Translations under genes and position numbers: made by a program | Origin: a bacterium | Lineage (GTDB): Bacteria > Patescibacteriota > Minisyncoccia > Phycocordibacterales > UBA10002 | Length of the DNA stretch: 26,465 nt | NCBI GenBank assembly: GCA_030648695.1 | Contig: JAUSHG010000036.1 | Location: forward strand, 1-26,465 | Direction: 5' to 3' | In this document: piece after piece, positions 15,324 to 25,098 of the stretch | Layout: each line of letters starts with the position of its first letter | Position numbering within the stretch: the first letter of the stretch is position 1 | Notes under the pieces: model-generated | The model's input: only the letters and a program-made list of their open reading frames with translations | Told to the model about the DNA's origin: nothing | Database searches by the model: none

Positions 15324-15391
15324 CACTTTTGACGATTGACTTTTAACGCGTCTTTCACCTGTTAAAAGTTAATGGTTAAAGGTTAAAAGTG
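15324..15391. repeat. Empty inverted-arm element (TTAAC family) upstream of rpmH
   Basis: cacttttgac...acttttaac pairs with gttaaaagt...gttaaaagtg. Confidence 0.8.
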
Positions 15392-15398
15392 TTTTTGT

Positions 15399-15548
15399 AT
15401 GAGCTTCACCTATAAACCAAAAAGGAAAAAAAGGGCGCGCACGCACGGATTCCGCTCCCGCATGAAGAGTGCAACCGGAAGAGCGGTACTCTCCCGCCGG
15501 CGCCGCAAAGGCCGCCACACACTGACCGCAAGCCGCAAGCGTACCTAA
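15399..15548 (+). CDS. rpmH: 50S ribosomal protein L34
   Basis: Manual translation [49 protein letters not shown]; canonical position between dnaA and rnpA. Confidence 0.97.
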
Positions 15549-15558
15549 CGGTCATTGT

Positions 15559-15637
15559 TAACTATTAACCATTAACTTTTGACTTTTAACAGCCCGAAAA
15601 CTTTCTGTTAAAGGTTAATTGTCAAAAGTTAATAGTT
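15559..15637. repeat. Empty inverted-arm element (TTAAC family) between rpmH and rnpA
   Basis: taactattaaccattaacttttgacttttaacag pairs with ctgttaaaggttaattgtcaaaagttaatagttg. Confidence 0.85.
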
Positions 15638-16013: not shown

Positions 16014-16760
16014 ATGTTCGCCCTGCTTAAGAGTGTTTTCTATATTCCTCTCTATAACGCGCTCATTCTCCTCATAGGAAGGATGCCCGGTTTTGGAGCG
16101 GGCGGGGCGGTGATTCTCCTCACTCTGGCCATTAAAATCATTCTCTTTCCGCTTTCACAGCGCGCCTCAAAGTTCCAATTTGAGATGAAGGCGCATGAAG
16201 CCGAGCTGAACCGCATTAAGGAGCGCTTCAAGGGAAATCGCGAGGAGCAGGGCCGCGCCATACTCGCGTTCTACAAAGAGAAAGGCATCAACCCATTCAT
16301 GGGCATTTTGCCTGTGCTCATTCAAATTCCCATTGTTATCGGACTCTATTATGTGTTCTACAAGGGAGGATTGCCGGGGGTAAACGAAGAACTGCTCTAT
16401 TCGTTTGTCCCGGTTCCCCCCGTTGATATGCATTTTTTCGGGATAGACATCTCGGAAAAGAGCATACTGCTCGCGGTATTGACCGGCGCCTCGCAATTTT
16501 TGCAGGGGCATTTCGCCTCCCCTCCTCCGCCCGCACCAAGTTCGGGAAAACCCTCATTTCAGGAAGACCTTGCTAGGGGCATGCGGCTTCAGGTAAAGTA
16601 TGTTCTGCCTCTGATTATGGCCTTTGTGGCCTATCAGGTGTCGGGAGCGGTAGCGCTGTATTTTATTACGAGCAACCTGTTTACCGTTTGTCAGGAGCTC
16701 TACCTACGCAAGAAGTTTAAGAAGGAGGGACATCTGACGCATCGGGGAGCATCCGACTAA
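16014..16760 (+). CDS. yidC: Membrane protein insertase YidC/Oxa1 (short form)
   Basis: AVILLTLAIKIILFPL, YKEKGINP, LIQIPIVIGLY, ALYFITSNLF. Confidence 0.95.
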   Translation: MFALLKSVFYIPLYNALILLIGRMPGFGAGGAVILLTLAIKIILFPLSQRASKFQFEMKAHEAELNRIKERFKGNREEQGRAILAFYKEKGINPFMGILPVLIQIPIVIGLYYVFYKGGLPGVNEELLYSFVPVPPVDMHFFGIDISEKSILLAVLTGASQFLQGHFASPPPPAPSSGKPSFQEDLARGMRLQVKYVLPLIMAFVAYQVSGAVALYFITSNLFTVCQELYLRKKFKKEGHLTHRGASD

Positions 16761-16850
16761 TCCGAATGTTCCGAATATCCGAATGGTTACGAATGCAGTC
16801 CTTCTTATTCGCAGGTATTCGTATATTCGTAGAGATTCGTAATTCGTATT
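16750..16850. repeat. Empty inverted-arm element (CGAAT family) between yidC and jag
   Basis: A ccgaat array (16750-16795) and an attcgt array (16807-16850); the yidC stop lies in the first arm and the jag ATG follows the second. Confidence 0.85.
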
Positions 16851-16852
16851 GT

Positions 16853-17308
16853 ATGACTAACGAAGAAATCAAAAAAACAATACAAGAACTACTCTCCCGC
16901 ATGGAGATTGCCTGCGAGTCCGTAGAGTGTGTTGATGAGGATTCGGACCGGCGGCGCTTTTCAATCCGCACTCCCGATTCGCATCTTCTTATCGGGCCCA
17001 AAGGCGCACACCTGTTTGCGTTCAATCATCTGGTGCGAAAAATTGCCGGAAAAGGCGAGGAGGGCGAGTTTCTCTTCACGGTTGACGTGAACGACTATCA
17101 CGAAGCCGCCCGCGAACGCCTGCATGCGCTTGCAAAGGTGATGGGAGACCGCGCCCGGTCGTTTAAGGCGTCAGTGGAGCTGGAACCCATGTCATCCTAT
17201 GAACGGATGGTGGTGCACACGTTTTTTGAAAATGCAGGAGATATTAAGACCGAGTCAACCGGAGACGGGGAACGCCGGAGGGTGGTTATCAAATACACTG
17301 GAGAGTAA
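16853..17308 (+). CDS. jag: Jag/EloR/KhpB-like RNA-binding protein (KH plus R3H, no Jag_N domain)
   Basis: LLIGPKGAHL (KH GxxG), VDVNDY, MSSYERMVVH (R3H), TESTGDGERRRVVI. Start moved from 16766, which translates the repeat. Confidence 0.88.
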   Translation: MTNEEIKKTIQELLSRMEIACESVECVDEDSDRRRFSIRTPDSHLLIGPKGAHLFAFNHLVRKIAGKGEEGEFLFTVDVNDYHEAARERLHALAKVMGDRARSFKASVELEPMSSYERMVVHTFFENAGDIKTESTGDGERRRVVIKYTGE

Positions 17309-17325
17309 TGGTTAGGAGGAGCTCG

Positions 17326-17752
17326 TAGCTTCTTAGCTGATTAGCTTTTTAGGGAAGAAATCATCTTGTTAAGCATTCGCATCACTTCAAGAAGCAAGCT
17401 GTCAATTTTTTGCAAATCTAAACCCTTTCCCCAAGGCAAGCGACGTACAATTTCAAGCTGGGTTTCCAGTTCAGCTCCGGAACCGTAAGCAATTAATAGG
17501 AACTGACAAAACTCCTTTTTTCCTCCGCGACGCCTTCCTTCTGCAATGTTAGAGGGGATAGAAACTGAGGCGCGTTTCATTTGCGACGAAAGTCCGTACA
17601 GTTCACTTTTCGGAAATTGCTCAGTAAGGGCATATAATTCAATGACGGCGTCTATACCTTTCTGCCACACGATTAATTCTTTATATGAATGTATTTCCAT
17701 CACGGTTTTTTAATTTCCCTAATAAGCTAAAAAGCTACCAGCTAATAAGCTA
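17326..17752 (-). mobile_element. Filled inverted-arm element A (AGCT family) carrying a four-helix-bundle gene
   Basis: Arms 17326-17352 and 17727-17752 are near-perfect inverses. Mobility is inferred, not shown. Confidence 0.6.
17341..17700 (-). CDS. Four-helix-bundle protein (23S rRNA IVS-encoded / Avd-like family)
   Basis: SYKELIVWQK, FPKSELYGLSSQMKRASVSIPSNIAEG, AYGSGAELETQL. Confidence 0.92.
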   Translation of the reverse strand: MEIHSYKELIVWQKGIDAVIELYALTEQFPKSELYGLSSQMKRASVSIPSNIAEGRRRGGKKEFCQFLLIAYGSGAELETQLEIVRRLPWGKGLDLQKIDSLLLEVMRMLNKMISSLKS

Positions 17753-18946
17753 ATCTTCAAATTCCACGCTCCAAAGCGTTCCGTCATTTTTGTTGGTAAA
17801 GATAAGGAACTTTTCATCAGGCGAGAGTTGCGGATGAACGAGGTCAATGGAGTCGCCCCCTTCACTGCTTATATCAAGTATCCGCTCCCCCACTCCGGTT
17901 TCCGCATCTATTTGCCATAGTTCATCGGTAAAAGAGATAACTCCCTGATACCAGGCATCGGGGTAGCTTCCTCCGGGAAGAGTGAGCGGAACCCCGCAGT
18001 AAATATCTTCATTTGATTTTGCCCAGACGCACTTTTCGGGAAGTGTTTTGTGCTGCAGGGCCGAGGCCTTGTTTGTTTTTCGGTCAAGCATCTGCAGGAT
18101 AATTCCGCCGCCCGAACTTTCGGAAAAGAGTATCCGCGACAGGTTTCCGTCGGGAAGCGCCGTGAGACCCGCCACATCGCGAATAAGCGGCTCCATTTCC
18201 CCGCCCCCGCTTGGAACCGACACGAGCATCCCGTCTGAAATAGCCGATGGCTTGGTGAGGAATGCAATACGGGAGGATGTAGTCCAGAGCGGAATCCATT
18301 CCCGAAGCGGAGACGCAAACATCTGTATTTTCCCGCTTCCGTTAAAGGCCGCGCGGACTCCCACTCCTCGCCCTCCTTCTTCGCGCATGTAGATAAGTTC
18401 CTTTCCGTCCGGCGAGAGCGCCACCTCCCGTATATTTCCGGGGAGGAAGGTCCCTTCAAGGGTTCCTTCGCCCTCTGCTTTTGGCTTGAGCGTTGCGGAA
18501 TAGGTCTGAATGGTTTCATTGTCTTCGCCAAGGTAGCGGGCAAGTACGGAGGCCCCGTCTTTCCGCCACAGCGCCTCATAGATTTTGGGTATCGTCGTAT
18601 TGGTCAGCCGCCGCACCACCCCGCCGGTTGCCGCAATTTCATACGTGTTGCCCGTGGCGCGGTCCAGGTACCGGACGCGGACGCTTTCATCCCGCCCTCC
18701 GACAACGGCGCCCGCTATCGGAGTAAGTGTTAGGCGGCGCAGTATGGGGCCTCCGCGCGTATCCGAGGGCAGTGCTACCGGTTCTTCCGTTTCCTCTTCA
18801 AATCCACCTTCTTCCGTTTCAGGAAACTCCCCCTCAATCGGCAGTTCGGCTTCAGGAGTTCGGAAAAAGAAAAAGTAAATAAGCGCCGCAATGACTGCGA
18901 GCACAATAACCGATACAACAATGGTGACGGTAGTTTTTCGCGACAT
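17750..18946 (-). CDS. Membrane-anchored hypothetical protein, probable beta-propeller
   Basis: N-terminal TM segment, acidic linker, repeated ALSPDGKEL and LSPDEKFLIF TolB/WD-like motifs. Confidence 0.75.
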   Translation of the reverse strand: MSRKTTVTIVVSVIVLAVIAALIYFFFFRTPEAELPIEGEFPETEEGGFEEETEEPVALPSDTRGGPILRRLTLTPIAGAVVGGRDESVRVRYLDRATGNTYEIAATGGVVRRLTNTTIPKIYEALWRKDGASVLARYLGEDNETIQTYSATLKPKAEGEGTLEGTFLPGNIREVALSPDGKELIYMREEGGRGVGVRAAFNGSGKIQMFASPLREWIPLWTTSSRIAFLTKPSAISDGMLVSVPSGGGEMEPLIRDVAGLTALPDGNLSRILFSESSGGGIILQMLDRKTNKASALQHKTLPEKCVWAKSNEDIYCGVPLTLPGGSYPDAWYQGVISFTDELWQIDAETGVGERILDISSEGGDSIDLVHPQLSPDEKFLIFTNKNDGTLWSVEFED

Positions 18947-21620: not shown

Positions 21621-21693
21621 AGCTGGAAGCTTATTAGCTGGTAGCTTTTTAGCTTTTTAGAAATTTCCTAACAAGCTAATCAGCTACAAGCTA
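21620..21693. repeat. Empty AGCT-family element (cargo-less counterpart of elements A and B)
   Basis: agcttattagctggtagctttttagctttttag-aaattt-cctaacaagctaatcagctacaagcta. Confidence 0.9.
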
Positions 21694-23511: not shown

Positions 23512-23946
23512 AGCTTGTAGCTTCTTAGCTGGTTAGCTTTTTAGGGAAGAAATCATTTTGTTAAGCATCCGCATCACTTCAAGAAGCAAACTATCAATCT
23601 TCCGAAAATCTAAATCTCTTCCCCAAGGCAGACGACGAACGATTTCGAGCTGCGTTTCTAGTTCTGCACCCGAACCATAGGCAATTAGCAAGAACTGACA
23701 GAATTCCTTTTTACCTCCGCGTCGCCTTCCCTCCGCAATGTTTGAGGGAATAGATACGATGGCACGTTTCATCTGGGATGCAAGTCCGTACAACTCACTT
23801 TTGGGAAATTGTTCAGCAAGAGCATATAGTTCAATTACACCTTCTATACCCTTCTGCCATACGATTAACTCTTTATACGAGTGTATTTCCATAACAATTT
23901 TCTTTATTCTTTCCTAATAAGCTAAAAAGCTACCAGCTAAGAAGCT
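23511..23946 (-). mobile_element. Filled inverted-arm element B (AGCT family) carrying a four-helix-bundle gene
   Basis: Arms 23519-23544 and 23922-23946 form a 25-bp stem with one bulged base. Mobility is inferred. Confidence 0.6.
23533..23892 (-). CDS. Four-helix-bundle protein, paralog of 17341-17700 (110 of 119 aa identical)
   Basis: Direct alignment of the two translations shows 9 substitutions. Confidence 0.92.
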   Translation of the reverse strand: MEIHSYKELIVWQKGIEGVIELYALAEQFPKSELYGLASQMKRAIVSIPSNIAEGRRRGGKKEFCQFLLIAYGSGAELETQLEIVRRLPWGRDLDFRKIDSLLLEVMRMLNKMISSLKS

Positions 23947-24590
23947 GTTACTGGGTGTTCGGTTTCCCCGGGATTAAACAATTTGTAAAACAACTCAACC
24001 ACCTCTTCGGTGCCGAGCTGTGCCACGCGCACGCCGGTGCGCACGAGCCCCTGCTCCACCACCGACACCCTCTGTTCAAGCTGAATCTTGTGTTCCTCAA
24101 ACCCCCTGTTCCCGCTTCCCTCCGGAGCCGATTGTTTCCCCGGAAGCATCCGGCTCAATTGCGCGCCGATTTTTCCCCCGCTTTCCGAAACCTGCAAAAT
24201 GGCCGGTGTGTAGGGTACCACTACGAAAAAGAGCTTGTTCATGATGTTGGTGTTCTCGGTGAACTTCCGGATAAATCCGATATATTCCTGCGTCTGGATT
24301 TTGAGCAGTTCATTGGTCTGTTTTCCAAGCCGCTCCTGCAGAAACTCCAAATAGGGTTTGACATCAAACCTCCGTGATTCCACGACAATCTGCACCGAGA
24401 AATCCAGCGCGTTTAAAAAACTCTGGAACTGCGCAATGATGGCCTGCTGGTTCTCTTCGGACTTGAGTGCAAAGTTGATGGAGGAGGCCATGAGTACAGC
24501 CCGAAGACCGCCGTCTTTGAGGATGACGATGCCGTCCCGAATTTCCCTTATTTTGACGAAATCCTGCGATGCTTTAGCTTTTATTGGCAT
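23937..24590 (-). CDS. Conserved VirB4-associated protein (typical partner between PrgI and the ATPase)
   Basis: SQDFVKIREIRDGIVILKDG, SSINFALKSEENQQAII, FQSFLNALDFSVQI; operon position. Confidence 0.75.
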   Translation of the reverse strand: MPIKAKASQDFVKIREIRDGIVILKDGGLRAVLMASSINFALKSEENQQAIIAQFQSFLNALDFSVQIVVESRRFDVKPYLEFLQERLGKQTNELLKIQTQEYIGFIRKFTENTNIMNKLFFVVVPYTPAILQVSESGGKIGAQLSRMLPGKQSAPEGSGNRGFEEHKIQLEQRVSVVEQGLVRTGVRVAQLGTEEVVELFYKLFNPGETEHPVTAS

Positions 24591-24599
24591 ATGAATAGA

Positions 24600-25098
24600 T
24601 ACGAGAAACGAATCAATATCCGAATAGTCCGAATGTTCCGAATCAACGAATGGATACGAATACTATTATACGTTATTTCTTTTGTTTTCGCGGGTCTAGA
24701 CGCAGAATTCTGATTGGTTTTACATAGCGACAGCGGAAATTAACAAGCAAGCCAAGCTCCACGCCGCTGGCCTGCAGGTAATTTTGAATTTGCCGGTAGT
24801 CGTTGCCTAACAGGACTCTCTTTGCTTTCAACTCCAATGCCACACATCCTTCAATGAGAAAATCTATGATATTTCCAGAATCACCGATGCGGATTTCTCT
24901 CTGATATTCAATTGATTTTTCCTTTAGTTTCTTTTCAAGGCAGTCACCATATTGTTTTTCTTTTCCATAGGGTCCTATCTCATTATGTACATCAAAACAA
25001 ATACCGGTAATATCGTAAGACAAATCCGGGTAAAGAACGTGCGGTTGTGTCTTATTCGCAGCCATTCGGATTATTCGGACAATTCGTTAATTCGGATG
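24600..25098 (-). mobile_element. Filled inverted-arm element (CGAAT family) carrying a GxxExxY gene
   Basis: A ccgaat array (24600-24663) and an attcgg array (25063-25098); 24618-24635 matches the inverse of 25063-25080 at 16 of 18 positions. Confidence 0.55.
24673..25065 (-). CDS. GxxExxY-family protein (PD-(D/E)xK nuclease-like)
   Basis: [10 protein letters not shown] (variant of GxxExxY), [33 protein letters not shown]. Confidence 0.88.

Follow-up and report, generated by a model that had tools for sequence, protein, structure and literature searches.

A probable guest-gene cassette of the rRNA intervening-sequence type, framed by periodic inverted arms, between two protein-coding genes of a bacterial genome

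Element A, a small gene enclosed by two inverted arms at an intercistronic junction, is rather likely to be an inserted guest-gene cassette of the type found as intervening sequences (IVSs) in rRNA, with arms that would make the insertion tolerable; it is one of two gene-carrying copies within a dispersed family of hairpins whose arms comprise about four TAGCTNNT units each. Cassette and arms are inherited as a unit, and the same design occurs in the 16S rRNA of relatives. Intervening sequences carrying an S23p open reading frame (ORF) have been known in rRNA since 1993; to our knowledge, neither their origin nor the role of the ORF has been explained, and the papers searched yielded no description of periodic-arm PF05635 cassettes outside rRNA. 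The window to which we refer throughout is the whole 26,465-nucleotide stretch analyzed, contig C42 of a 584-kb genome (G000) that is 89% complete in 91 contigs; its principal features and the corresponding junctions of congeners are collected in Table 1.

RESULTS

Structure of element A and its cargo

Element A occupies the gap between the convergent stop codons of a PD40-like gene and jag; congeneric orthologues of the PD40-like gene end at the same position, and no promoter, terminator, or terminator-like T run was found within the element. Because the junction is convergent, looping out of the insert has no downstream cistron to rescue at this site. The initial annotation had described a four-helix-bundle gene looped out by a stem of approximately 26 bp that starts at the upstream stop codon and takes in the end of the cargo gene, and the positions bear this out: the 5' arm opens with a TAG (17750-17752) that doubles as the stop codon of the 398-aa upstream gene, and the cargo ends TCC CTA AAA AGC TAA inside the 3' arm (its last three sense codons and the TAA at 17341-17343).

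An inverted-repeat search returned the pairs 17320-17344/17719-17743 (25 nt, 88%), 17334-17356/17715-17737 (23 nt, 87%), and 17326-17339/17739-17752, which overlap because the arms are internally periodic. In the register that joins 17326-17352 to 17726-17752, the arms form a duplex of 26 bp that contains a single mismatch and a single bulge (-30.6 kcal/mol); an alternative in-register stem of 5+5+5+7+7 bp (about 35 bp), interrupted by small internal loops and making use of GGGAA/TTCCC, reaches -36.6 kcal/mol, and the inner unit of the 5' arm together with GGGAA pairs with 17346-17356. Shuffling of the 3' arm gave a mean of -12.2 (standard deviation, 3.5), which places the arm duplex at a z score of -7. 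The same pairing of the two arms is recovered in the minimum-free-energy fold of 17320-17760 (minus strand); the stability of the whole element is unexceptional (z score, -1.04), a value that is uninformative because the cargo interior dominates the fold. The stem is real, but it is not private to this gene: the arms of element A score -29.1 with each other, compared with a mean of -34.7 for its 5' arm with the 3' arms of other family members, which makes the stem a property of a dispersed repeat family, most copies of which are gene-less, and not of the element A locus.

The cargo ORF extends over 17341-17703 on the minus strand, or 120 aa when counted from the GTG at 17703; its start is likely to be the ATG at 17698-17700, as in the paralogue of element B. 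Profile matches to PF05635 (E value, 1.2e-34; full length) and TIGR02436 (E value, 3e-34) confirmed the four-helix-bundle identity assigned to the protein, and the nearest solved structure is that of XCC0516, a homopentamer (2GSC). Identification of the cargo as the Avd protein of a diversity-generating retroelement was rejected: it scored 20.9 bits against NF033474 (cutoff, 80) and 17.3 bits against PF22296 (cutoff, 40), neither a reverse transcriptase nor a template/variable repeat adjoins it, and the only RVT_1 match in the genome is located on another contig. That sole reverse-transcriptase match (357 aa; G000 C2:739-1812) is separated by about 4 kb from a divergent PF05635 gene (C2:5509-5808).

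Table 1. Coordinates of elements A and B and associated features, and contents of the two variable junctions in G000 and its congeners
Feature	Location	Strand	Description
Element A	17320-17756	-	Two inverted arms around PF05635 gene
Element A 5' arm (mRNA strand)	17715-17756	-	About four units of TAGCTNNT
Element A 3' arm (mRNA strand)	17320-17356	-	Units of ANNAGCTA
Element A cargo gene	17341-17700	-	PF05635/TIGR02436 four-helix-bundle protein, 119 aa from ATG
Upstream host gene of element A	17750-18946	-	398 aa, weak PD40 repeat match
jag (R3H domain)	16853-17308	+	Host gene convergent with element A
Element B (sister copy)	23512-23947	-	Same arms as A; between 217-aa gene and virB4
Gene-less TAGCT hairpin	21621-21693		7-nt loop; between virB4 stop and next ATG
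Small genes framed by non-periodic palindromes	G000 C9:364-723, C81:7568-8155, C88:972-1577, C7:1156-1764, C15:6348-6653, C84:335-1051, C19:3354-4034
PD40-like junction	G000		TAGCT four-helix-bundle cassette
PD40-like junction	G003		TAGCT/TAGGT cassette
PD40-like junction	G008		TAGGC cassette
PD40-like junction	G013		Cassette, AACG-type arms, divergent protein
PD40-like junction	G010, G014		GIY-YIG genes
PD40-like junction	G004, G005, G002		Gene-less hairpins
PD40-like junction	G023		Ordinary terminator
Junction before virB4	G012, G019, G018, G002		2-7 nt between genes
Junction before virB4	G000, G005		Four-helix-bundle cassettes
Junction before virB4	G008, G017, probably G003		GxxExxY cassettes
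Junction before virB4	G014, G006, G011, G009		Gene-less hairpins

Comparison with the sister copy

The proteins of elements A and B are 92% identical and their coding sequences are 83.6% identical, with 9 nonsynonymous and 43 synonymous codon changes, a pattern indicating that the cargo protein is under purifying selection. Of 120 third codon positions, 46 differ, against 3 of 75 arm positions (Fisher's test, p = 8e-9), and the conservation of the arms includes their variable positions and the order of their units; as judged from this pair of copies, arm sequence has changed far less than silent sites. Formation of the stem at element B would bring the start codon of virB4 back next to a stop codon.

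Periodic repeat families in the genome

Elements A and B are the only gene-carrying members of the TAGCT family, which comprises 51 arms genome-wide in about two dozen hairpins. The gene-less members, about 20 to 25 in number, show the intergenic dispersal that is characteristic of REPIN-RAYT systems; by eye, unit order recurs among the arm sequences. Orientation of the gene-less hairpins with respect to transcription showed no significant bias (11 same, 4 opposite; p = 0.12). An unbiased scan of the genome returned approximately 220 arrays of 7- to 9-nt units, compared with 2 in a shuffled genome, and these include at least six unit families (TAGCT, AAGTT, GTTAA, CTAATT, TCAATT, and ATTCG); within each major family, one or two copies bear a cargo gene. 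Every one of the seven PF05635 genes of G000 lies between periodic arrays built from a unit of its own, and the arrays are inverted in six cases and direct in the copy on contig C25. The sole GxxExxY gene of the genome (PF13366, PD-(D/E)XK; 24673-25065) lies between inverted CGAAT/ATTCG arrays (window positions 24591-25098). About 4% of ordinary genes in G000 are flanked by matching arms and, with hairpins at this density, flanking inverted repeats have modest specificity within the genome. One such ordinary gene, rpmH (15399-15548), stands between GTTAA and TTAAC arrays (window positions 15359-15592) and is framed by the arms of neighboring hairpins.

Two further observations were made. A gene-less CGAAT hairpin between yidC and jag (16750-16852) was covered by contigs to a depth of 300 to 890, against about 8 in its flanks, both in the source run, a groundwater metagenome, and in a soil run unrelated to it, and the excess in both indicates that the CGAAT arm family is common in many organisms of those communities. 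Small genes encoding a DUF559 protein (Vsr-like nuclease), three PaaX_M/Cas2-like proteins, a GIY-YIG nuclease, and two Y1 transposase-like proteins each have their own non-periodic palindromes; several kinds of guest gene framed by hairpins appear to be present in G000.

Contents of orthologous junctions across the genus

Gene order around the junction that follows the PD40-like gene is conserved in the genus, and the content of this junction varies, with four different four-helix-bundle cassettes among the genomes compared; the presence/absence polymorphism at orthologous sites that is a feature of transposable elements was found across the genus at both this junction and the one preceding virB4 (Table 1). 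Since orthologous junctions are tight, occupied by hairpins only, or differently filled, the cassettes are insertions and, on the evidence of these comparisons, they are repeated gains at originally tight sites. No target-site duplication was recognizable at element A or B, the flanks of which are too diverged from those of empty sites; no mobility enzyme linked to these arms was found, nor was a filled/empty allele pair found among near-identical strains. Contig joints that skip the element were rejected as empty alleles; their sides measured only 20 to 33 nt and came from other hairpin loci or other organisms.

The virB4 orthologues of three congeners, G001 (L164/L169), G013 (L165/L170), and G015 (L166/L171), were matched in two pieces, residues 1-273 and 264-605, that share one open frame of approximately 1190 to 1280 aa. 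Such a split points to roughly 650 aa inserted in frame in virB4, perhaps an intein.

PF05635 cassettes in relatives and in other phyla

In more than 20 related genomes, all 27 PF05635 loci had inverted repeats at both ends, mostly periodic and with many different cores. A broader set of 78 loci was drawn from Bacteroidota, Clostridia, Acidobacteriota, Gammaproteobacteria, Chloroflexota, Planctomycetota, and many Candidate Phyla Radiation lineages; 42 of these exceeded the 99th percentile of a mismatched-flank control, and most had periodic units. The period was 7 in 432 spacings, 8 in 98, and 6 or 9 in 54 together, and the commonest number of units per arm was 4, with most arms containing 2 to 5. 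Arms become less similar as the proteins diverge (Mantel r = 0.30, p = 0.0005, with p-values overstated because the sampled cassettes are related to one another), a correlation indicating that the PF05635 gene and its arms are inherited as one unit. The proteins at loci L084 and L093 are 68% identical, and their arms are unrelated.

Placement in a 16S or 23S rRNA helix, a feature of rRNA IVSs, was found in relatives and not in element A. In a member of the same order (L026), a 413-nt insert at the tip of 16S helix 6 (model positions 79-83) carries a PF05635 gene and CTGGA-type periodic arms, and a cassette of the same type, with arms nearly identical to these, lies next to or in the 16S rRNA of a member of the same genus (L027). 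The three PF05635 copies of the window stand between protein-coding genes, and at none of the four remaining PF05635 loci of G000 (L003 and L005 to L007) did Rfam models detect rRNA. Element A does possess two other features of rRNA IVSs, an ORF of the S23p/23S_rRNA_IVP family in the loop and complementary terminal sequences that enclose the insert. The likeness to ORF-bearing rRNA IVSs to which the initial annotation drew attention is thus upheld by protein family, size, and kind of stem and by the 16S copies of relatives; given the presence of the same cassette type in 16S rRNA and of framed PF05635 genes across phyla, it is a homology of design. Two more inserts, one of 189 nt near model position 455 and the other of 63 nt near position 600, interrupt the 16S gene at L026 (1366-2853).

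Constraints on the arms

Inward-facing stop codons were present in all three frames in 56% of 5' arms and, on the other strand, in 62% of 3' arms, compared with 20% in shuffles and 32 to 42% for the outward direction. TAG accounted for 224 of 329 arm stops, and the TAGs of element A occupy frames 0, 2, 0, 2, and 1. A period of 7 or 8 sets successive TAGs in different frames, which accounts for the start of the stem at the stop codon of the upstream gene; that coincidence, singled out in the initial annotation, is genuine but not special to this locus, as inward stops are a general property of the family.

Cognate TAGCT arms pair less well than permuted partners (-24.7 versus -27.3 kcal/mol; p = 0.005), and two other unit families show the same trend. 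The cassettes sampled share ancestry, and the p-values are accordingly overstated. Covariation of arms within loci was accordingly discarded, the result being the opposite of that expected for a selected stem. Genome-wide, the two arms of a TAGCT, CTAAT, or CGAAT hairpin are less complementary to each other than to the arms of different hairpins of the same family, a deficit for which avoidance of long perfect palindromes is a possible reason. Gene-less hairpins between co-directional genes were equally stable in sense and antisense (73 G-U versus 74 A-C), and the sense strands of 77 cassettes contained 105 G-U and 124 A-C mismatches, with no G-U excess; selection for an RNA stem consequently finds no support in these strand comparisons. 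A look-up of public RNA data listed no run.

DISCUSSION

We suggest that the arms of element A would render its insertion harmless in two ways. Repeats of TAG at a period of 7 to 8, which is not a multiple of three, would close any reading frame that enters the element and, at this junction, would also supply the host stop codon; in addition, the arms could pair into a stem of 26 to 35 bp and so loop the cargo of about 370 nt out of the host transcript. A stem of this kind would resemble the substrate that RNase III cuts in the homologous rRNA IVSs and, by that homology, cleavage is its likely fate; a gene for RNase III is encoded in G000, on contig C78.

A second reading, which does not exclude that of an IVS-type cassette, gives priority to a partnership of protein and repeat, comparable to that of RAYTs with REPINs or of Ssn nucleases with NTS repeats. 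The arms would serve primarily as arrays of binding sites for a ring-shaped pentamer, one 7- to 8-nt unit per subunit, with the gene and its arms as the master copy, the gene-less hairpins as targets, and the stem as a secondary feature. We regard this as possible, if on balance unlikely. The restriction of each major unit family to one or two cargo-bearing copies fits such a scheme, as do the preservation of arm sequence, variable positions, and unit order between elements A and B far above the level of silent sites and the preferred complement of four units per arm (mostly two to five) when set beside the homopentameric state of the nearest solved relative (2GSC; PMC4990558); that protein and arms diverge together is, however, explained by co-inheritance alone, and the proteins at L084 and L093 retain 68% identity with unrelated arms. 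Arms that are not optimized for pairing with their cognate partners and that bear no RNA-strand signature would also be expected of binding sites, and there is a precedent in the Ssn nuclease genes, which are flanked by the hairpins on which they act (PMC11893778), but the GxxExxY nuclease gene has periodic arms of the same design, which counts against arms that are particular to the four-helix-bundle protein.

In a more far-reaching form, which we consider speculative and unlikely, the four-helix-bundle pentamer would be a sequence-specific reader of its own tandem 7- to 8-nt units, one per subunit, and the gene and arms would constitute a self-maintaining module, gene-less copies of which colonize intergenic gaps and the loops of rRNA helices, the arms being harmless by virtue of all-frame stops and self-folding out of the transcript. 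If this were true, it would define a widespread class of elements distinct from transposons, introns, and REPIN/RAYT systems and would explain both the rRNA IVSs and the long-unexplained heptamer repeats of bacteria.

It is quite improbable that the arms are host intercistronic hairpins for mRNA processing, stabilization, or termination, in the loop of which a gene has lodged by chance. The gene-less hairpins do fill the spacers in which they lie, with median gaps to neighboring genes of 13 and 7 nt, and 38 of 46 are located between co-directional genes, and similar heptamer arrays of Xanthomonas are transcribed and lie between aligned ORFs (PMC4692102); yet the same junctions are hairpin-free and only 2 to 7 nt long in several congeners, so that the hairpins are dispensable additions, and the unit family at a given junction varies between close relatives. 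Nor would element A, with neither a terminator-like T run nor a promoter, be suited to such a role, and the framing of PF05635 genes across phyla is not expected from chance lodging. The likelihood of a chance palindrome or an assembly artifact is negligible, as only the unexceptional fold of the whole element (z score, -1.04) speaks for it against an arm duplex with a z score of -7, two independent copies in the window, a pattern repeated at more than 100 loci, and source-run contigs that span the interior of the cassette and both arm boundaries.

Element A is thus best regarded as an inserted IVS-type cassette, and G000 ties together two old puzzles, rRNA IVSs and intergenic heptamer arrays, unusually clearly. 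A single genus provides filled, hairpin-only, and untouched versions of one junction, and the arms follow design rules that comprise a period that is not a multiple of three, inward stops, and conserved sequence despite unoptimized pairing. If the stems are processed or bypassed, these cassettes would show how a compact genome tolerates 400-nt inserts between translationally coupled genes.

Relation to known systems

The closest counterparts of element A are the rRNA IVSs of Leptospira and Coxiella burnetii, with which it shares a PF05635 cargo. The Coxiella IVS contains an S23p ORF in 428 nt, compared with about 430 nt for element A, and its enclosing stem, of 28 bp with a single mismatch and a single bulge, is cut at midpoint by RNase III in vitro (PMC4990558); the stem of element A has 26 bp, also with a mismatch and a bulge. 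Both types have a sporadic, insertion-like distribution, in relatives of G000 cassettes of the type of element A lie in or beside 16S rRNA, and 23S_rRNA_IVP ORFs have been reported from rRNA inserts of Candidate Phyla Radiation bacteria (PMC11270868). In contrast to the rRNA IVSs, element A stands between two protein genes and outside any rRNA helix, its arms are tandem 7- to 8-nt units common to many gene-less hairpins, and RNase III cleavage, demonstrated for the rRNA elements, is a prediction for element A. Avd is a distant homologue of the cargo, with the same four-helix-bundle pentamer fold family, but the cargo scores far below the cutoffs of the Avd models.

REP/REPIN-RAYT systems likewise consist of dispersed intergenic palindromes, a few copies of which frame a gene, with each repeat family having its own gene; element A differs in that its cargo is a PF05635 protein and not a Y1 transposase and in that its arms are tandem arrays and not a single palindrome. 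A direct link to RAYTs was rejected, as the PF01797 (Y1_Tnp) genes on contigs C84 and C19 are flanked by other, non-periodic palindromes. The Ssn GIY-YIG nucleases with their NTS/SRM repeats offer a further parallel, a small gene flanked on both sides by a hairpin repeat that has many gene-less copies (PMC11893778), and two congeners have GIY-YIG cassettes at the junction orthologous to that of element A; the cargo of element A has another fold, with no known catalytic site, and its repeat is periodic and does not correspond to the SRM motif.

Heptamer arrays have been described as inverted GGGNATC repeats in Xanthomonas and Nostoc, without a link to a gene (PMC4692102), and as direct TAACTGA repeats in Beggiatoaceae (PMC4679880). 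They resemble the arrays reported here in their 7-nt units, in a preference for about four units, and in their position between co-directional genes near stop and start codons and, in Xanthomonas, in the frequency of inverted pairs. Those arrays have been interpreted as quadruplex forming or regulatory and tied to no gene family (PMC4692102, PMC4679880), whereas the arrays of G000 frame PF05635 and GxxExxY genes.
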